Made by a program: the position numbers and the translations under genes. A model generated the notes under the pieces. It made no database searches and was not told the origin of the DNA. It saw only the letters and a list, made by a program, of their open reading frames with translations. A stretch of 64,000 bases of DNA from an uncultured Alphaproteobacteria bacterium (GTDB lineage Bacteria > Pseudomonadota > Alphaproteobacteria > Reyranellales > Reyranellaceae), in contig CAVXZJ010000010.1 of the NCBI GenBank assembly GCA_963766285.1, positions 74,250-138,249 of the forward strand, given 5' to 3'. Shown here piece by piece: positions 30,619-46,330 of the stretch; the stretch's first letter is position 1; each line of letters begins with the position of its first letter.

Positions 30619-30766
30619 CCGGCGAGCCTCGCATGGAACGGTCCAGGCGTCCAAATGCCTGATATTGCCTGCGAAATCGGTGGTTGGTTTGACACTTTGC
30701 CCCCCGGCCGCTAGAAGCGCCGGGCATCCGCCGTGGATATAAGTCGCCGGGGCCTTGACGGGCTGC

Positions 30767-30859
30767 GGAGGGGTGGCCGAGTGGCCGAAGGCGGCGGTTT
30801 GCTAAACCGTTATAGGGAGATAATCCCTATCGTGGGTTCGAATCCCATCCCCTCCGCCA
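30767..30859 (+). tRNA. tRNA-Ser(GCT)
   Basis: GGAGGGG/CCCTCCG acceptor arm with encoded CCA, anticodon GCT at 30801-30803, long variable arm, GGTTCGAATCC T-loop. Confidence 0.97.
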
Positions 30860-30898
30860 TTACTTTATAGGCCAGTAAAATAAGCATTTTAAGGGGGC

Positions 30899-30923
30899 CT
30901 TCCACACAGGTCTTCCACACAGG
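30899..30923. repeat. Tandem 12-bp direct repeat just downstream of the tRNA (integrase arm-site-like)
   Basis: CTTCCACACAGG at 30899 and 30912. Confidence 0.6.
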
Positions 30924-30967
30924 AACAAAGAAAGAACATTGCGGCGCGATGGTGCTAGGGTTCGCCC

Positions 30968-31165
30968 ATGATTGGGCGGGTTGCAGAACTATCGTCGGCG
31001 GAGATCGACCGCCAGTTCCCGTACACCTCGCGGGTAATCCAGCGCACGCTTTGGGAAACGTCGGACCATCTCAAGGTGAACGAGTGCCTCAGTAAAATCA
31101 CGAACGAGCATCGCTGCGGCTACTGGAACGAAGTCGGCACCTATATTCGTCTCCGAAGCTCATGA
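30968..31165 (+). CDS. Small hypothetical ORF, possibly a degenerate mobile-element remnant
   Basis: 65-aa ORF in the AT-richer patch after the tRNA; no recognisable domain. Confidence 0.3.
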   Translation: MIGRVAELSSAEIDRQFPYTSRVIQRTLWETSDHLKVNECLSKITNEHRCGYWNEVGTYIRLRSS

Positions 31166-31378
31166 CTCCTCCAATTTGGATGCAAAATATAAGGCCTTTG
31201 TTCTAGCGCCTGATATCCGAAGTGCGGGGCTGCATTGCGTCAGCTTCCGCTTGCACTGCTTGCAACCTGCAGTACGCAGTCCTAACAGTTGAGGGTCTCG
31301 GTTTGAGGGTGCTACGGCGCCAAGTGCGTGGGAAGCACCCTCCGTGCATCGGGGCGATTAGCAAGAGGGGGTATACTC

Positions 31379-32002
31379 ATGATGAAGAAGCTTCTGATCA
31401 CGTCGGCAGCCGTACTGCTGCTGGCGGCATGCCAACAGCAGCAGGCAGCCAGCCCGCCGCCTGCCGCGCCCCGGGCGCAGGGTTTCAGCGTGTACTTCGA
31501 CACCGGCCAATCGGCATTGTCGTCCGAAGCGACCGCAACTGTTGCGCAGGCGGCCGCTGCCTACAAGCAGGGCGGCGTCAACGTTGGAGTGCGCGGCCAC
31601 GCCGATACCGTGGGCAACTCGGAGTTCAACCTACAGCTCTCGCAGCGGCGCGCGGCGTCCGTGAAGGCCGCCCTGCAGAGCAACGGCGTACCGGGGTCGG
31701 CGATCCTGAGCGGCGGCGTAGGCGAGGATCTCCTGCCAGTCCCGACCGCCGAAAACGTCCCCGAGCGGCTCAATCGCACCGTCCGTATTGTCGTCGCGAG
31801 ACAGGCGCTCATGAGCGACGCGGACTATTGCCAGGCCCTCAGCGTTCTCTATCGTCGCTATCGCCCGGCCACCATCGATGAAGCGGCAGCTCACGCGATG
31901 GGCATATGCCCGACCGATCCGGCATCGGCCATTCCCGTCCTCGAGGACGCCGTCAGTCAGATGAAGATCCCGCTGCCCTCGCGCGTCCTGGCGCGCAGCT
32001 AG
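31379..32002 (+). CDS. OmpA-family lipoprotein with C-terminal two-cysteine (DxxYC...IPVLE) domain
   Basis: LLAAC lipobox; VYFDTGQS, GHADTVG..FNLQLSQRRA, NRTVRI; C-terminal SDADYCQALS...IPVLE...LPSR. Confidence 0.9.
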   Translation: MMKKLLITSAAVLLLAACQQQQAASPPPAAPRAQGFSVYFDTGQSALSSEATATVAQAAAAYKQGGVNVGVRGHADTVGNSEFNLQLSQRRAASVKAALQSNGVPGSAILSGGVGEDLLPVPTAENVPERLNRTVRIVVARQALMSDADYCQALSVLYRRYRPATIDEAAAHAMGICPTDPASAIPVLEDAVSQMKIPLPSRVLARS

Positions 32003-32021
32003 CCAACTAAACCGAAATCCG

Positions 32022-32059
32022 CGGGGGGCGGTCAAAGGTGACTCCCCCCGTTTTCGTTT
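32022..32059 (+). terminator. Rho-independent terminator after the OmpA gene
   Basis: CGGGGGG..GTCA/TGAC..CCCCCCG stem followed by TTTTCGTTT. Confidence 0.7.
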
Positions 32060-32219
32060 GCGGCTGCACGCCGTGCTCGTGCATGCCCCGCCCTGAGTAA
32101 CGCCCTTCATCATGGGCGCGGTCGTTGTCAGGGTGAAGAGCCGCTGTATTCCGTGCGCGGAAAGTTCGGTCTAGTCTTCATCATCAGCGAGGCGATGCTG
32201 ATTTAGATGGGATGGGTCG

Positions 32220-34522
32220 ATGCTTGACCAGGCAAGTCCACTCGAGATCGACCTCGGCCGCCCGATCGGCGTCAGTCCGCAACTCTCCGCGCACGTCACC
32301 GACGAACGTCGCGTCCTGCTGCTGGGTGAGTCCCGCAGCTTTCGCCTGGGCGGCAAGCTCTATGTCGCGCTGCTGCCCTTCCTTGACGGCACCCGTACAG
32401 GGCAGCAGGTCGTGGAAGCCTTCGCCGGCCGCGTCGCAGCCGACCGCCTGCGTTCGGTCCTGCAGGACATGCTCAAGAAGGAATACATCCGCTATATCGA
32501 TCCGGCGGCGCCGATGGCGCGTCAGGCACTGTGGGTCGAACTCGGGCTTTCGCCGGCAGAGGCCGAGCGGCGTTTGCGCGGCCAGTCGCTGGCGGTAAAG
32601 GCCGCGTCCCGGGACGGATCGCTGGCAGTGGCGGCAAAGGCGCTGAAGCAGGCGCTGGTGGCCAGCGGAATGCCCGTTGTGGCCGCGAAAGACGCCGCAA
32701 TCGTCGTCATGGTTGTCGACGATTACCTGCGGCGCGATCTGGCGGTCGTGAACCGGCGCATGCGCAAGGCGGGCCGCTCGTGGATCCCGTTCAAGGCCGG
32801 TGGCAGCATGCCGATGATCGGCCCGCTGTTCCGTCCGGACCGAGCGCCGTGCTGGGCGTGCCTGGCGAACTTCATCGTCGAGAACCGGCCGGGCGACAGG
32901 GTCGTCGATCAGACGCTCGAAGCGGTGCGGCCCGCCAGGGCCCGGACACCGGCGACCCTGGCGATGGCCGCAGGCTTCGGAGCACTGGAACTCGCGCGCG
33001 AGCTTGCCGGCGAGCAGCCCGCAGGGCTCGAACGCCACGTGCTGAGCTTCGACCTGAAGGAGCGTGCCTTCAGGCGACACGAGATCCGGATCGATGCCAA
33101 TTGTCCGGTGTGCGGCACTCGTGAGAAGCCGCGCGCCGTGCTGGAGCGCGCCAAACGGCCGATCGTGCTGCGCCCGCAACCGGTCCAGCCACAGGTCGAC
33201 GGCGGCTGGCGCACGCTCACCGCCGAGCAGGTCGTGCAGAAGCTCGACCGCTATGTCAGCCCGATCACGGGCATCATCTCCGGACTGGAAGACATGTCGC
33301 TCGGACTGGGCCTGCCGGTGTTCGCCGCACGACAGACCAATCCCGTGCCTGTCGGTCCGCGGCAGAACCGCCTGATCGGCCGTCCCAGCGGCGCGGCCGG
33401 CAAGGGCATGAGCGAGGCGCAGGCCAAGGCGAGCTGTCTCGCGGAGGCAGTCGAGCGCTACCTCTGCGGCTACACCGGACGGGAGCCGCGCATGCGTGCG
33501 ACATGGGATCGCGTCAGGAAACAGGCGCCGCATCCCTGCACCTACCTGAACTACAGCGAGCATCAGTACGATATCCGCGAGGAGTGGAACAAAGCCAATG
33601 GCGGCTTCAATTGGGTAGGCGAGCGTTTCGACGAGACGCGGGCGATCGAGTGGACGCCGGCCTGGTCGCTGAGCCGCAATGCGCTGCGCTGGCTGCCGAC
33701 GCGCTATTGCTATTTCAACTACAGCGACACCGTGGAAGGCGAAGAGAATATCTTCTGCCGCGGCAACTCCAACGGCTGTGCCTCCGGCAGCACCATCGAG
33801 GAAGCGATCGTTCAGGGGTTCTTCGAACTGATCGAACGCGATGCGTGCGCTCTGTGGTGGTACAACCGCGTCCGCCGCCCGGCATTCGACCTCGACGCGC
33901 TGGACGACCCCTTCGTCCGCCGCGCGCGCGCCTGGGCGGCCGCCCGCAAGCGCGGCGTATCGGTTCTCGATCTGACGACCGATCTCGGCCTGCCGGTGGC
34001 GATGGCTGTGTCGCACAGCCTGGCCGATGGCGGTTCGATCGTTTTCGGGTTGGGCGCGCATTTCGATCCCGCCATCGCCGTGAGCCGCGCCCTGGCCGAG
34101 CTCAATCAGCTGGCCTCGCTGGAGGACATCAAGGCGATCAAGGAAGCACCGGACGCCGCGGGCGATCCTGTCGATACGATGGTGGAGTGGCTGCGCGGCC
34201 ACACGCTCGAGACCGATCCGTATTGCGTGCCGGATGGCGTCGTGTCGACGGGGCGGTACGCTGCTCCGCCGATCGGCGACCTCAAGCAGGCGGTCGGAGC
34301 GTTGTGTCCGTGCCGTCTCGGATCGCGGTTACGACATGATCGTGCTCGACCATCTCGCGGGCCGAGGTGGATTTCGCCGCCGCGCGCGTGGTCGTGCCGG
34401 GCCTGCGTCACTTCTGGGCGCGGCTGCGCGAGGGCCGGCTCTACCGTGCGCCGGTCGACATGGGCTGGCTCGGCGCGCCGCATGCGGAAGCGGATCTCAA
34501 CCCGGTGCCATTTTTCCTGTGA
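32220..34522 (+). CDS. Fused RRE/E1-like-YcaO cyclodehydratase of a TOMM/LAP RiPP pathway (frameshifts ~34305 and ~34350)
   Basis: PCWAC and CPVC Zn motifs, SCLAEAVERY and NSNGCASG...FFELIERD YcaO motifs. After frame correction it ends RVVVPGLRHFWARL...LNPVPFFL* (TGA 34520-34522). The 1217-aa ORF call is an artefactual fusion. Confidence 0.9.
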
Positions 34523-34529
34523 GGCTCCC

Positions 34530-35873
34530 GTGACCGGCGTCGTCGACCTCGTCTACCGTTTCGAACCCGACGTGCAGAAGGTCGAGCGCACGGGCGATGG
34601 GATCGCGATCCATGTCAGGAACTGGAAGACCCTGAACGTTTCACCGCCGACGGCGGCGGGCGCGAACGCGATCGTCGCGCTGATGGACGGCGCCACCCTC
34701 GAACGTCTCGCGCAAATCGGCGGCTCGACCGGGATCGCCAGCCACTACGCCGAACGATTCTCGCGGGCGCGCCTGCTGGTATGGGACATCGTCGACGCAG
34801 AGGGACCGCTGGCCCGTGCGACCTCGCTGACGGCGGGCTACCGGCCGCGCGAAGATGCGCCACCCGAACAGCCGCTCGCCCTCAGCCGCTTTGCCTATCT
34901 GCGTGCGGATGGCCCGCGCATGATCGTCGAGTCGGGGCTCGTGCGGGCGTGCCTCGTGCTCGAGCCGCGCGGACTGGCGGCACTCGCGCGTTCGCTGGAA
35001 CATCCGCACACCGCCGCTGTCGACGATTTTGCCGGCGTACTTTGGCGGATGGGCTTCTTCGAGCCGGCAGGCCTCGAGGAGAGCGACGTCCGGGCCTGCT
35101 GGGAGTTTCACGATCTCCTGATGCACGAGCAGAGCCGGTTCAATCGCAGCCAGCCGCGCCGCGGCCTTTACCGGCTGGAAAGCAAGGTCCCCGAGCCCCC
35201 CGCGGTGAAGCCCGCGATGCCCGGCACCCGCATTGCCTTGCCCGCGGTCGAGACGGCGCGCCTGGCGAGCTCCAGCGGGCGGCTGGAAGACGTCCAGGAC
35301 CGCCGGCGCTCGCTGCGCGCCTACGCCGACAGGCCGCTGCCGCTGCAGGCTCTTGGCGAATTCCTCTGGCGGACGGCCCGCACGCGAGCGAGCTTCGACG
35401 CCGGTGGGCATTCGCTGCTGACGCGCGGCTATCCCGCAGGCGGCAGCATCCATGAACTCGAATTCTACGTCGCCGTGCGCTCCTGCGAGGGACTCGAGCC
35501 GGCGCTTCATCACTACGACAGCCACGGCCATGCGATGATCCGGCTCGAAGGATCGGCCAGGGGCGCCGCCCGGATCGTCGAGAACGCGTTTGCGGCGATG
35601 GCGCTGGAGCCCGGGCAGGTCATGCCGCAGGCCGTCATCGTGCTGGCCTCGCGCGTGCCGCGGCTTGCCTGGAAATACGAGGGTGTCGCCTACCGCCTCG
35701 CGCTCCTCAACGCCGGCGTGGTGATCGAACTCATGTATCTGGTAGCGACCGACATGCGGTTGTCGCCGTGCGCCAACGGCTCGGCCAATTCGCGCCCGTT
35801 CGAGGAGTCGACGGGCCTCGATCCCCTCGCCGAAACCGCACTGGCCGAGTTTTGCCTCGGCGTGCCTGCGTGA
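34530..35873 (+). CDS. SagB-type FMN-dependent peptide dehydrogenase
   Basis: GTG start 7 nt after the YcaO stop; WEFHDLLMH, RRRSLRAY, YPAGGSIHELEFY, AWKY, LNAGV. Confidence 0.9.
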   Translation: MTGVVDLVYRFEPDVQKVERTGDGIAIHVRNWKTLNVSPPTAAGANAIVALMDGATLERLAQIGGSTGIASHYAERFSRARLLVWDIVDAEGPLARATSLTAGYRPREDAPPEQPLALSRFAYLRADGPRMIVESGLVRACLVLEPRGLAALARSLEHPHTAAVDDFAGVLWRMGFFEPAGLEESDVRACWEFHDLLMHEQSRFNRSQPRRGLYRLESKVPEPPAVKPAMPGTRIALPAVETARLASSSGRLEDVQDRRRSLRAYADRPLPLQALGEFLWRTARTRASFDAGGHSLLTRGYPAGGSIHELEFYVAVRSCEGLEPALHHYDSHGHAMIRLEGSARGAARIVENAFAAMALEPGQVMPQAVIVLASRVPRLAWKYEGVAYRLALLNAGVVIELMYLVATDMRLSPCANGSANSRPFEESTGLDPLAETALAEFCLGVPA

Positions 35874-36745
35874 CCAGCGGGATTACGGAGAAGCGCGCCA
35901 GCGAGCTGACCGCGGCCGAGGTCGACGCCTTCCATGTCGATGTCCTGGGGGAGCAGCGCGTCCGGACGGCTGGTGCTGGCCTCTTCAACGGATTCGGCCG
36001 CGCGGCCCTGGCAGGAGAAGAACTCGTCGGTCTGATGGCCGGGGACTTTGTGTCCCGCAACGACGATACGGGCGAATGGCTGCTCAATCTGCGCGGCGGC
36101 GTGCATCCGCGGTTGCGACGCCGCGGCATCGGCCGGCGCCTGATGGAGAGACTTGTCGTGGACTGCCACGAGCTGGAAGGGGGCGTCGATATGCTGGCGA
36201 CTCTTACCGAAGCCGAACTCGACGCAGGCGGCCCCTTCGTGTCGGCGCTCGGCTTCGAAGAGACCGTCGGGATGGTCCGTTATCAGGCCAATCCACGGAT
36301 CGTTCCCCTGCTGCCGCGCAATGGTGCGTTTGCGACGCGTGCCTATCGCGGCGGGGAGCCCGCCACGGATGCGGCAATCGCCGATCTCTACGGTCGCGCC
36401 TATCGCGGCCGCCGCAGCGTGCCGCAGCTCAGGCTCGGGTTTTCATCCGATCTGGCCTACCTGCTCGTCTTCGATGGCGATCTGCTGGTCGGCCACGCGA
36501 CAGCCCAGAAGGTAAACGACGTCTGCTTCATCGACAGCATCGTGGTGGCACGTTCTCACTGGGCGTCGGGTGCAGCCGATGCCCTGTCCGGGGCAATCCA
36601 TCGTCACGCGCTGCAGCAGGCCGCGCGTCTCGTCGTGGCCTACGTCGAGGCAAGCAATCGGGCGAGCCGCGCGCTGATCGAGCGCCACGGAATGACCGAG
36701 GTCGCGACCTTCAGCCGCTTCCGTCGGACCGTGGCCAGGATATGA
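35870..36745 (+). CDS. Tandem GNAT acetyltransferase of the RiPP operon
   Basis: GTGA overlap with the dehydrogenase; VHPRLRRRGIGRRL (GNAT 1) and VVARSHWASGAA...EASNRASRAL.ERHGM (GNAT 2). Confidence 0.85.
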   Translation: MTSGITEKRASELTAAEVDAFHVDVLGEQRVRTAGAGLFNGFGRAALAGEELVGLMAGDFVSRNDDTGEWLLNLRGGVHPRLRRRGIGRRLMERLVVDCHELEGGVDMLATLTEAELDAGGPFVSALGFEETVGMVRYQANPRIVPLLPRNGAFATRAYRGGEPATDAAIADLYGRAYRGRRSVPQLRLGFSSDLAYLLVFDGDLLVGHATAQKVNDVCFIDSIVVARSHWASGAADALSGAIHRHALQQAARLVVAYVEASNRASRALIERHGMTEVATFSRFRRTVARI

Positions 36746-36781
36746 CGGCGAAAGAAGAACGCGCTGCAGAAGGCCTCGGGC

Positions 36782-36937
36782 CTACCGGTCCGGCGCCGAC
36801 GGGAAGACAGGGCACAAGTTCTGGCACCCGGGATGGGAAAGCGTTTCGGCGCGATCGAGTGCTTCATCCGAGAGTTCGTCGTCGAACTCCGGAACGAACC
36901 CTTCCTGTTCCTGTGGCGCGATTTTCTGAACAGACAT
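36782..36937 (-). CDS. Candidate RiPP precursor peptide (51 aa)
   Basis: Translated by hand: MSVQKIAPQEQEGFVPEFDDELSDEALDRAETLSHPGCQNLCPVFPSAPDR*. AGGAGG RBS 5 nt before the ATG; acidic leader with ELSDEAL. Confidence 0.8.
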   Translation of the reverse strand: MSVQKIAPQEQEGFVPEFDDELSDEALDRAETLSHPGCQNLCPVFPSAPDR

Positions 36938-37018
36938 TGAAGCCTCCTGGGGAACTCCCGCCCAGGTAGCATGAATACTAATTCGATGACTTACAACACC
37001 CGCTATGTGCAGAATTAA

Positions 37019-37076: not shown

Positions 37077-37610
37077 ATGAATGCCGCCGAATACACCGCT
37101 ACCGAACGCCTGCGCGATGGAAGATCGGTGCAGATTCGGGCGCTGCATCCGGGCGATCGGGCCGAGATGCTTGCCGCCGTCGGGCGATTCAGCAAGCAGT
37201 CGCTATACCGCCGGTTCTTTGCGCCGAAACGAAGCTTCAGCGAGCGCGAAATCGAATTCTTTCTCAACGTCGACTTCATCGGCCACGTGGCACTGGTGGC
37301 CGTGCTCTCCGAAGGGGAGCGGCAGGTGATTGCGGGCGGTGCGCGGTACATCATCGCGCAACCCGGCCGGGCGGAGCTTGCGTTCGCAATCGACGACCCG
37401 CATCAGAAGCTGGGTATTGCCACCCGCCTGATTGCCCATCTCGCCGAGATCGCCCGCGCGGCTCAACTCGAGGCGTTTGTCGCCGAAGTGCTGCCGGAGA
37501 ACGCGCCGATGCTCAAGATATTCGAACGCTGCGGACTGGCGATGACGACGCGCCGGGAGAGGGGCGTCGTTCACGTGACGCTCGCTCTTACCGCCGCGGG
37601 CGGTGCTTGA
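37077..37610 (+). CDS. GNAT acetyltransferase (Pat-like stand-alone domain)
   Basis: LRDGRSVQIRAL.P.D, SLYRRFF, AELAFAIDDPHQKLGIATRL, VLPENAPMLKIF. Confidence 0.9.
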   Translation: MNAAEYTATERLRDGRSVQIRALHPGDRAEMLAAVGRFSKQSLYRRFFAPKRSFSEREIEFFLNVDFIGHVALVAVLSEGERQVIAGGARYIIAQPGRAELAFAIDDPHQKLGIATRLIAHLAEIARAAQLEAFVAEVLPENAPMLKIFERCGLAMTTRRERGVVHVTLALTAAGGA

Positions 37611-38344: not shown

Positions 38345-38520
38345 GCGGACAAAGTAAAGGCCGGTCGCTTGGGGACGACCGGCCTTCCTTGAAGAGCCTG
38401 CTGGGTTGGGAAGTCGAAGCCTTGGGTGTGTGGGAAGGGGGCTTCGACGAACGGCCTGGGTGGGCCGGTGCAGGCTATGGGAACTGGTGGTGGGTCGGTC
38501 TGCGCCGCTGGCGCTCATTC
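38345..38520 (-). ncRNA. Candidate multi-hairpin small RNA with C-rich loops ending in a terminator
   Basis: Perfect stems at 38357-38386 (11 bp, followed by UACUUU), 38413-38448 (9 bp) and 38452-38467. Loops read UCCCCAAG, CCCUUCCCACACACCCAA and CACCCA on the minus strand. No credible ORF. Confidence 0.45.
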
Positions 38521-38805
38521 CTTGGTGATTGAATTAAATGTAATAAAATCAATTGTCTCGACGCCGATCTAACGAAGGCACTTTACCTGATGGCGGGCGG
38601 ATTTAAACATGCAATTATGCATATCTTGAAGGTTCTACTGTTCATTTTTAAAGGGCTTTACCAGCTGTTTTATGCAGGCTTGAATATCTGAATCCCTCTT
38701 AAATATCCGAAAATATGATATATTATCATTTATAATCAATAGATTAGTGCATAATCTTCAGAATAGAAAATCGGCTTCCCGGGATTGAAACACTGCAATT
38801 TGAAG

Positions 38806-44643: not shown

Positions 44644-46330
44644 ATGGATTACGAAGTCCCGGACTACGAAGTCATCGTCATCGGCGCGGGCGTGGGCGGC
44701 ATCTATCAGATCAAGCGGCTGGCGGATCTCGGCATCAAGGCCACGGTGCTGGAACTGGCGGGCGATCTCGGCGGCACCTGGTACTGGAACCGCTATCCCG
44801 GCGCGCGTTTCGACTCGGAGAGCTACACCTACGGCTACTCGTTCTCGAAGGAGCTGCTCGACGAGTGGCACTGGAAGGAGCGATTCTCCGGCCAGCCGGA
44901 GAATCTCGCGGTACCTGAACTACGTCGCCGACAAGTTCGACCTGCGCAAATACATGCAGTTCAACGTCCGCGTCGAGGCGGCGCACTTCGACGAGGCCAA
45001 CACGCTATGGCGCCTGACGCTCTCGGATGGGCGCACGCTCAGCTGCCGCTTCGTGGTCATGACCCTGGGGCTGCTGTCGCAACCGACCTTGCCGCGCCTC
45101 GAGGGCATGGACTCTTTCAAGGGCCGCTCGTTCCACACCTATTACTGGCCGCAGGAGCCGGTCGATCTCGCCGGCAAGAAAGTGGCGGTGATCGGCACCG
45201 GCGCCACGGCGATCCAGGTGATCGGCGAGATCGCGGACAAGGTGGGCGAGCTCACCGTGTTCCAGCGACGGCCGAACTGGAGTGCGCCGCTCAACAACAG
45301 CCCGATCTCCGCGGCCGAGATGGCCGACATTCGCCGCCGCTACGACGAGATCTTCGCCGCCTGCGCGCGCTCGCCCGGTGGCTTCGTGCACGAGCCGGAC
45401 CGGCGTGGCTTCTACGAGGTATCGCGCGAGGAGAGGCAGGCGCTATGGGACAAGCTCTATGACGAGCCGGGCTTCGGCATCTGGCTCGCCAACTTCCGAG
45501 AGATCTTCATGGACGAGGAGGCCAATGCCGAACTCTCCGAGTACATCGCCGGGCGCATCCGTCGCCGGGTCAAGGACCCCAGGGTGGCCGAGAAGCTGAT
45601 CCCTACGGATCATGGCTTCGGCATCCAGAGGGTGCCGCTGGAGACGCGTTATTTCGAGGCCTACAACCGGCCCAACGTGCATCTGGTCGACTTGCGCGAG
45701 ACGCCGCTGGCGCGGGTGACGGCGCGGGGGTTGCAGACGACGGAGCGGGAGTACGAATTCGACATCATCGTCTATGCCACGGGCTTTGACGCCATCACCG
45801 GCGCGTTCGATCATATCGACATTCGTGGCACTCCAAACTCCACAGGGGCCGGGCAGTCCCTGCGCGACAAGTGGCGGGACTCCTGCTCGACCTTCCTCGG
45901 CATGATGATCCATGGCTTCCCGAACCTGCTGATGCCGGCTGGTCCGCAAAGCGGCTCGGCCTCGACCAACTATCCGCGCGGCATCGAGACCGGCGTCGAC
46001 TGGTGCACCGACTTTCTGCGGGAGGTCTTGAAGCAGGATCGCACGCGCTTCGAGGCGACCGCGGAGGCCGAGGCGAAATGGACGGCGCACGTTGTCGGCA
46101 TGTACTCGATGATGCTGATGCGCAAGGCCAAGGGGTGGTTCACCGGCTACAACTCCAATGTCACGGGCCATGAGGAGGGCAAGGTGCGCTACTTCGTCTA
46201 CAACGGCGGCGCGCCGAAGTATGTCGCCCGCATCAACGAGGTCGCCGCCAGGGGCTACGAGGGCATCGACCTCGGAAACGCACCGAGGGGTGCATTGGGA
46301 CGTTCAGCCGCCGCCGCCAAGGCTTCGTGA
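44644..46330 (+). CDS. Baeyer-Villiger monooxygenase (frameshift ~44907)
   Basis: GAGVGG, GGTWYWNRYPGARFD, FKGRSFHTYYWP (FxGxxxHxxxWP), GTGATAIQ, ATGFD. Confidence 0.92.

Follow-up and report, generated by a model that had tools for sequence, protein, structure and literature searches.

A short-leader precursor peptide gene predicted to supply a YcaO-dehydrogenase operon in an uncultured Reyranellaceae bacterium

The window analyzed here is a 64,000-nt stretch of DNA from an uncultured alphaproteobacterium of the family Reyranellaceae (GenBank assembly GCA_963766285.1, contig CAVXZJ010000010.1, positions 74,250 to 138,249). [quoted passage not shown] We favor this reading because a conserved coding gene is linked to a PatD-type cyclodehydratase and an azoline oxidase, and because its product has the leader and core anatomy of a RiPP precursor. 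A preliminary description of the window had proposed that the peptide is recognized by the operon's enzymes through an ELSDEAL motif; conservation and linkage support that proposal.

Coding evidence for the precursor gene

The precursor gene and its control region contain the following features, each given with the evidence for its assignment.

36782..36937, minus strand: precursor peptide gene, 51 codons plus stop, with a leader of about residues 1-31/32 and a core of about 32/33-51 (sequence, homologue, ratio of nonsynonymous to synonymous substitution rates [dN/dS], family membership)
36854..36877, minus strand: leader recognition motif ELSDEALD (E21-D28), in which L22 and L27 form an L(X)4L pair (family conservation, hhalign, published role of L(X)4L)
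36785..36844, minus strand: predicted core T32-R51, TLSHPGCQNLCPVFPSAPDR (family conservation ends after LDR plus about 3 residues)
36948..36943, minus strand: Shine-Dalgarno sequence AGGAGG, 5 nt (CTTCA) before the precursor ATG (read directly; identical in the related contig L001 despite diverged flanks)
36938..36996, minus strand: 5' untranslated region and putative promoter, partly kept in L001 as TTGTAA ... TAT.CAT ... GGGA.TTCCCCAGGAGGCTT (DNA alignment)

The ORF translates as MSVQKIAPQEQEGFVPEFDDELSDEALDRAETLSHPGCQNLCPVFPSAPDR, and the ATG used for it is the first start codon in its frame. It converges on the GNAT gene, whose stop ends at 36745, across a gap of 36 nt (36746..36781) in which no terminator was found. 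The coordinates, translation, AGGAGG spacing, gap and tail composition (2 Cys, 2 Ser, 1 Thr and 4 Pro in the core) given in the preliminary description were all borne out on reading the sequence.

The surrounding 16 kb has a high G+C content and holds 135 ORFs of at least 40 aa. By itself, therefore, a 51-codon ORF is not above chance, and its significance rests on conservation. A search of 5.8 billion proteins recovered the identical peptide on several soil-metagenome contigs, together with one divergent homologue (P0002, 50 aa, 71% identical). On contig L001, the gene for this homologue likewise follows GNAT, ThcOx and YcaO genes in convergent orientation. Alignment of the two ORFs showed three indels of 3 nt each, all in frame, and seven codons with synonymous-only differences, some of them within ELSDEALDR and CPVFPSAPDR; the latter segment is identical in the two peptides. 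The dN/dS was 0.24 (Nei-Gojobori, 49 codons).

BLAST homology between the window and L001 was limited to 32211..36959, beginning at the YcaO start and stopping 22 nt upstream of the peptide ATG; the flanks outside it are unrelated. Therefore, the four genes, including the peptide gene, behave as one 4.75-kb unit.

Leader and core anatomy in a large precursor family

We aligned 20 YcaO homologues and scanned one genome per species, which yielded 80 loci; six-frame translations of all loci were searched with the peptide and then with a hidden Markov model (HMM) of the family. Precursors of this family, one to eight per locus, were present in 12 of the 15 loci with a YcaO 59-88% identical to that of the window (L001 and L002 included), and the window is the 13th carrier. 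Those that lacked one were two very short contigs and L005. Conserved homologues beside related YcaO operons, which the preliminary description had suggested looking for, thus exist. The related loci are labelled Reyranella or Enhydrobacter, and the ilvD product of the window shares a cluster at >=90% identity with a MAG named Enhydrobacter sp., in keeping with a Reyranella-like alphaproteobacterium. Layouts of the related loci vary: five precursors stand in tandem in L013 and eight in L012, a single one lies directly upstream of YcaO in L006 and L007, and the gene is divergent in L008 and in L035, a locus of the cultured Rhodospirillales bacterium URHD0017. Within the 64-kb window the family HMM detected no second precursor, and the region upstream of YcaO (30650-32300) was rejected as a source of one, since all it contained besides an OmpA/MotB-like lipoprotein gene were implausible ORFs. 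A scan of metagenome contigs that started from the peptide added 15 further loci, mostly short, with arrays of up to eight genes; L087 was long enough to show YcaO and the dehydrogenase.

The family is far larger than these loci. A profile search of the protein collection at E <= 1e-3 returned at least 2092 clusters (90% identity) of 37-110 aa, which carry no Pfam domain and are called 'hypothetical protein' where they are named. Sampled clusters had a near-invariant leader, MSE.EM.TEAEVEDFTDELSDEALDRAEG, followed by hypervariable cores. Four such peptides were found on longer contigs: L100 has YcaO and an array of about 10 precursors, two lie at contig ends, and the L101 array stands beside mobile-element genes. 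Arrays at contig ends are to be expected, because repeated leaders break assemblies. The preliminary description had called the window gene hidden; in public assemblies gene callers had already predicted it.

Members share the plan M..(12-16 acidic residues)..EF[DT]DELSDEALDR, about three further residues, and then an unrelated tail (median 18 aa). In 24 family members, leader columns F18, D20, L22, D24, E25 and D28 were invariant, and E21, L27 and R29 nearly so. Cysteine occurred in 157 of 165 distinct tails (95%), at least two cysteines in 128 (78%), and Cys made up 14% of tail residues. On this pattern Cys38 and Cys42 of the window peptide are likely thiazole sites, and the leader is probably cut close to the point where conservation ends.

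As a separate observation, 31 of the 165 family cores (~19%) end in (P)VADR, VANR or APDR, the rest of the core being hypervariable. The window peptide (36785..36799) and its L001 homologue end in SAPDR, and the APDR end resembles the recurrent (P)VADR ending of the family. This end may be a C-terminal follower or processing signal.

Two further observations concern the surroundings of related arrays. A DUF697/EcsC-like gene lies directly beside the precursor arrays of several relatives (L011 15810-16328; L096 6275-6940; L100 10435-10953; L101 10545-11009) and is absent from the window cluster; it may be an export or immunity component. Related clusters also contain an M1 aminopeptidase (L013 6195-8900) and an M20 peptidase (L011 16676-17929).

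More distant YcaO loci indicate where the short leader came from. Loci with a YcaO 35-40% identical carry precursors of the NHLP/Nif11 type (NHLP, nitrile hydratase leader peptide), in which ...LVLP..P.ELSDE[AED]LDxVAGG precedes a Cys-rich core. When the short-leader family was compared with NHLP-type leaders by hhalign, DELSDEALDRAEG matched ELSDExLDxVAGG with 91.8% probability (E 7e-7, 16 columns), so that the short leader is equivalent to the enzyme-facing C-terminal portion of the NHLP type. At the AGG position of NHLP/Nif11-type leaders the window peptide reads AET, and most members of its family AEG. To judge from these alignments, the short leader is an NHLP-type leader that lacks the nitrile-hydratase-like domain and whose Gly-Gly appears to have degenerated to AEG. 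The preliminary description was correct that the peptide has neither a double-glycine site nor flanks of the GLEAS/AYDG type. The leader is, on the match to the last 16 residues of NHLP/Nif11-type leaders, no orphan.

Experiments on PatE/LynD and MprE/MprC, including the NHLP substrate MprE7, have defined the L(X)4L pair as the point of contact with the recognition domain (the RiPP recognition element, RRE) (PMC12455567). A 16-residue remnant of an NHLP-type leader appears sufficient to recruit the enzyme, in agreement with this contact. A PDB profile search with the peptide family gave a chance match only (E 1.4).

Loci with a YcaO 42-48% identical contain more divergent small ORFs, with L.DE[AS]LDR(P) and then Cys-containing tails (L017 6350-7858 and 12645-12815; L021 7363-7542; L022 2385-3452). 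The short-leader type is therefore not confined to the Reyranella-like clade.

These comparisons provide a probable substrate for the PatD-like cyclodehydratases of a widespread alphaproteobacterial clade, whose public annotation is only 'TOMM precursor leader peptide-binding protein' (TOMM, thiazole/oxazole-modified microcin), and they define a new precursor family, with thousands of hypervariable members, outside all curated models. A literature search (the motif, Reyranella with YcaO, alphaproteobacterial azole RiPPs) found no description of the family; its coverage was incomplete and a prior description is possible. Alphaproteobacteria and acetyltransferases both go unmentioned in the 2015 survey of TOMM clusters. 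To a RiPP specialist, a precursor beside a YcaO operon is expected; what is of interest is how large and hypervariable the family is, how minimal its leader, and that the (P)VADR/APDR tail recurs. The compact short-leader module of four genes in 4.75 kb would be convenient for designer thiazole peptides, and the tandem arrays offer a ready view of natural core diversity in soil bacteria.

The enzyme operon and competing explanations

Gene boundaries in the operon were mapped from the intact orthologues of L002, which, like L003, is 98.5% identical to the window.

32220..34522, plus strand: fused winged-helix(RRE)/E1-like/YcaO cyclodehydratase of the PatD/TruD/LynD type, with two 1-nt insertions in the window (Pfam/NCBIfam; L002 orthologue)
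34296..34353, plus strand: private single-base insertions, with G added at 34296 and T at 34353 (three-frame translations; comparison with L002 and L003)
34530..35873, plus strand: SagB/ThcOx-type azoline dehydrogenase dependent on flavin mononucleotide (FMN), 447 aa, GTG start (PF22767, PF00881, TIGR03605; L002 orthologue)
35870..36745, plus strand: two-domain GNAT acetyltransferase, 291 aa (Pfam GNAT at residues 85-180 and 211-310 of a 325-aa ORF; L002 orthologue)

The earlier naming of these neighbors as YcaO, dehydrogenase and GNAT genes agrees with the Pfam and NCBIfam matches, by which the YcaO is fused to a leader-binding part and the dehydrogenase is of the SagB/ThcOx type. The YcaO matched PF21084, TIGR03882 ('TOMM precursor leader peptide-binding protein'), PF02624 and TIGR03604, and the intact 766-aa L002 protein aligned from residue 16 to its C-terminus with TruD (4bs9), LynD (4v1t) and MusD (7u58) at E ~1e-134. 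The dehydrogenase matched the cyanobactin oxidase CyaGox (5lq4; E 9e-43). An overlap of 4 nt between the dehydrogenase stop and the GNAT start makes for a tightly packed operon, and the precursor gene lies 2.26 kb downstream of YcaO. The GNAT had no sequence relative in the PDB and no PADLOC match, and its single-sequence AlphaFold2 model (pLDDT 38) was unusable. A second GNAT at 37077..37610, similar to the Pat acetyltransferase domain and divergent from the peptide gene, was set aside as probably outside the cluster, since L001 homology stops at 36959.

The genes suggest a pathway. The L22(X)4L27 segment of the leader would add a beta-strand to the N-terminal winged-helix recognition domain of the PatD/LynD-type cyclodehydratase. 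The YcaO domain, with ATP, would then cyclodehydrate Cys38 and Cys42, and possibly Ser/Thr, to azolines, which the ThcOx/SagB flavoprotein would oxidize to thiazoles (-20 Da each). A protease encoded elsewhere would cut the leader near A30-E31-T32, where related leaders have their AGG/AEG cleavage region in the alignments. The GNAT could acetylate the freed N-terminus, as GodH does in goadsporin, or could give the producer self-protection.

Several observations weigh against this assignment. The window-type subfamily, with peptides ending in ...CPVFPSAPDR, has two distinct members only. The GNAT is restricted to the subclade of the window, L001 and L002, and most of the family lacks it. Within 10 kb neither a leader protease nor an exporter was encoded, as judged from the Pfam lists for L002. 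No sigma-70 consensus was found upstream of the precursor gene, and it is for this reason that the promoter within 36938..36996 is given as putative. Transcription of the region, a point in its favor, is weakly suggested by short contigs over 36810-36992 and 36649-36849 in two soil metatranscriptome runs; these have a depth of 2-3 and no strand, and may derive from DNA carry-over. Beside the L101 precursor array no YcaO was present in the 10 kb covered on one flank; the other flank reaches the contig end after 2.4 kb.

The remaining point against it is the state of the YcaO gene. The two insertions shift the frame twice and remove the conserved C-terminus, whose sequence (...VVVPGLRHFWARL...LNPVPFFL) is displaced into other frames, and the 1217-aa ORF at 32220..35873, an apparent YcaO-dehydrogenase fusion, is an artefact of them, the original frame continuing by chance into the dehydrogenase. 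The operon as assembled may therefore not work. Of the earlier picture of an operon beside the precursor, the three enzyme genes stand; the YcaO is frameshifted as assembled, and the GNAT is not a family feature. Either this strain has lost the pathway's activity, or two bases of the assembly are erroneous. Were the insertions true mutations, the precursor would be real and its pathway dead here, with a cyclodehydratase lacking its C-terminus and fused out of frame and a peptide left as an unmodified relic; we think this less likely than not, and it is compatible at the family level with a thiazole-peptide precursor. It is consistent with the privacy of both extra bases, which neither L002 and L003 nor, in four soil metagenome runs, related contigs (~97-98% identical) contain, with their spacing of just 57 nt in one gene, and with the conservation of the lost LNPVPFFL end across the clade and in TruD. 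Against it, the peptide, dehydrogenase and GNAT genes are intact, and signs of assembly error occur elsewhere: a further private single-base insertion lies at 44907, in a gene for a flavin-containing monooxygenase (FMO)-like enzyme, and related assemblies (L003, L001) have split genes, typical of long-read indel errors.

Other explanations of the peptide itself fare worse. YcaO enzymes catalyze several amide activations, and the substrate could in principle undergo backbone thioamidation or amidine macrocyclization, as in thioviridamide, bottromycin and streptamidine; this we regard as quite improbable, given an enzyme that aligns end to end with the azoline-forming TruD, LynD and MusD, a SagB/ThcOx oxidase translationally coupled to it, strongly Cys-enriched cores and the lack of a TfuA-like gene in the neighborhood. 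Conservation beside the operon would also fit a real small protein that is not a substrate, for instance one conferring immunity, acting as a regulator or partnering the operon in a chaperone-like way. We give that very little credence: an invariant leader, a hypervariable tail rich in Cys and tandem arrays of up to eight paralogues are the signature of a RiPP substrate and not of a partner, and the leader shares homology with the segment by which NHLP leaders bind the recognition domain. The idea that the ORF arose by chance inside conserved non-coding DNA (a terminator region, say, or a small RNA encoded between convergent genes) is effectively refuted. It could draw on the frequency of short ORFs in high-GC DNA and on a third-position G+C content (GC3) of 0.69, below the 0.75-0.84 of the neighboring genes. 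The in-frame indels, the synonymous-leaning differences with their low dN/dS, the conserved ribosome-binding site and more than 2000 protein-level homologues with diverged DNA all contradict it, and an Rfam search of the precursor region gave no match.

The reading of the ORF as a thiazole-peptide precursor can be extended, tentatively, to one possible account of the whole family. The window peptide would be an outlier within a very large library, natural and combinatorial, of short-leader thiazole peptides from soil Reyranellaceae and their relatives. Its (P)VADR/APDR tail might be a follower for an undescribed, PatG-free C-terminal processing or cyclization, and the GNAT subclade might make an N-acetylated variant.

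The flanks of the cluster yielded observations of their own. Synteny with L002 and L003 breaks at 32146, just upstream of the YcaO start, where these contigs carry FRG and T5orf172-domain genes and the window has an OmpA/MotB-like lipoprotein gene (31328..32002). A tRNA-Ser(GCT) gene at 30767..30859 lies 1.3 kb from the break, and the adjoining stretch is, by comparison of these sequences, evidently a variable region. Downstream, within the part aligned to L002 and L003, a 270-bp intergenic stretch (38520..38790) has a G+C content of ~38%, as opposed to 65-70% for the genome; Rfam found nothing in it at gathering score. Just after the ilvD stop, a 166-bp insertion private to the window relative to L002 and L003 (44468..44633) resembles, with its long inverted repeat (CCTCATCCTGAGGAGG ... 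CCTCAGGATGAGG), a small element of the MITE/REP type (miniature inverted-repeat transposable element/repetitive extragenic palindrome).

Comparison with known classes

Neither the Pfam nor the NCBIfam collection contained a model that matched the peptide. We compared the cluster with known systems by its genes and its anatomy. The Pfam lists for L002 and L003 showed no protease, ABC exporter, LanB-like or TfuA-like gene within 10 kb, and the comparisons below draw on them.

Cyanobactins carry the leader motif LAELSEEAL, which the L(X)4L-containing ELSDEAL of the window resembles. The window-type cyclodehydratase aligns end to end with TruD, LynD and MusD, and the oxidase with CyaGox. The cluster differs from cyanobactin clusters in having no Peptidase_S8 or PatG-like gene within 10 kb, no RSII/RSIII flanks (neither G(L/V)E(A/P)S nor AYDG was seen on reading), a single core and a non-cyanobacterial host. 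The PatE model TIGR03678 produced no NCBIfam match for the peptide, nor for 24 relatives at E up to 10. The PatA and PatG proteases are encoded in all active cyanobactin clusters (PMC4663559). We therefore rejected cyanobactin membership, for want of PatA/PatG, a PatE model match and cassette flanks. The cyanobactin comparison made in the preliminary description was functionally apt by way of L(X)4L.

NHLP/Nif11-type systems are related through the last 16 leader residues, which are homologous, and through their precursors, which adjoin more distant members of the fused YcaO family. Hypervariable cores and multiple precursor genes have been described for these systems (PMC2887384). In contrast to them, the window peptide lacks the nitrile-hydratase-like or Nif11 domain of ~60-80 aa and has a leader of only ~31 aa, no Gly-Gly site, and no peptidase-containing ABC exporter nearby. 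The peptide matched neither the NHLP model (TIGR03793) nor the Nif11 model (TIGR03798); among 24 relatives, one reached E 0.11 to Nif11 and none matched NHLP. Membership in this group was likewise rejected, on the grounds of the missing model match, long domain and Gly-Gly site.

The enzyme set is closest to that of goadsporin, minus the dehydroalanine-forming enzymes. By domain content, the fused cyclodehydratase GodD, the FMN dehydrogenase GodE and the N-acetyltransferase GodH are matched by the window's YcaO, dehydrogenase and GNAT. GodH acetylates the goadsporin N-terminus after leader removal (PMC5303826). The precursors are also similar in size, with a 30-aa leader and a 19-aa core in GodA and ~31 and ~20 aa in the window peptide, and both products are linear azole peptides, that of the window being predicted from its genes. 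The systems differ in that the split LanB-like dehydratases GodF/GodG and the resistance gene were not found within 10 kb of the window-type cluster, in their hosts (Streptomyces versus an alphaproteobacterium), and in their leader families, which are unrelated as far as tested.

Every class feature of TOMMs and linear peptides containing azol(in)es (LAPs) that could be tested is present. A YcaO cyclodehydratase with an E1-like/RRE leader-binding part adjoins the precursor, an FMN-dependent SagB-type azoline dehydrogenase is in the cluster, and a conserved leader is joined to a variable, Cys-rich core. Judged by its genes, then, the window peptide is best classed as a short-leader, NHLP-derived LAP/TOMM precursor.

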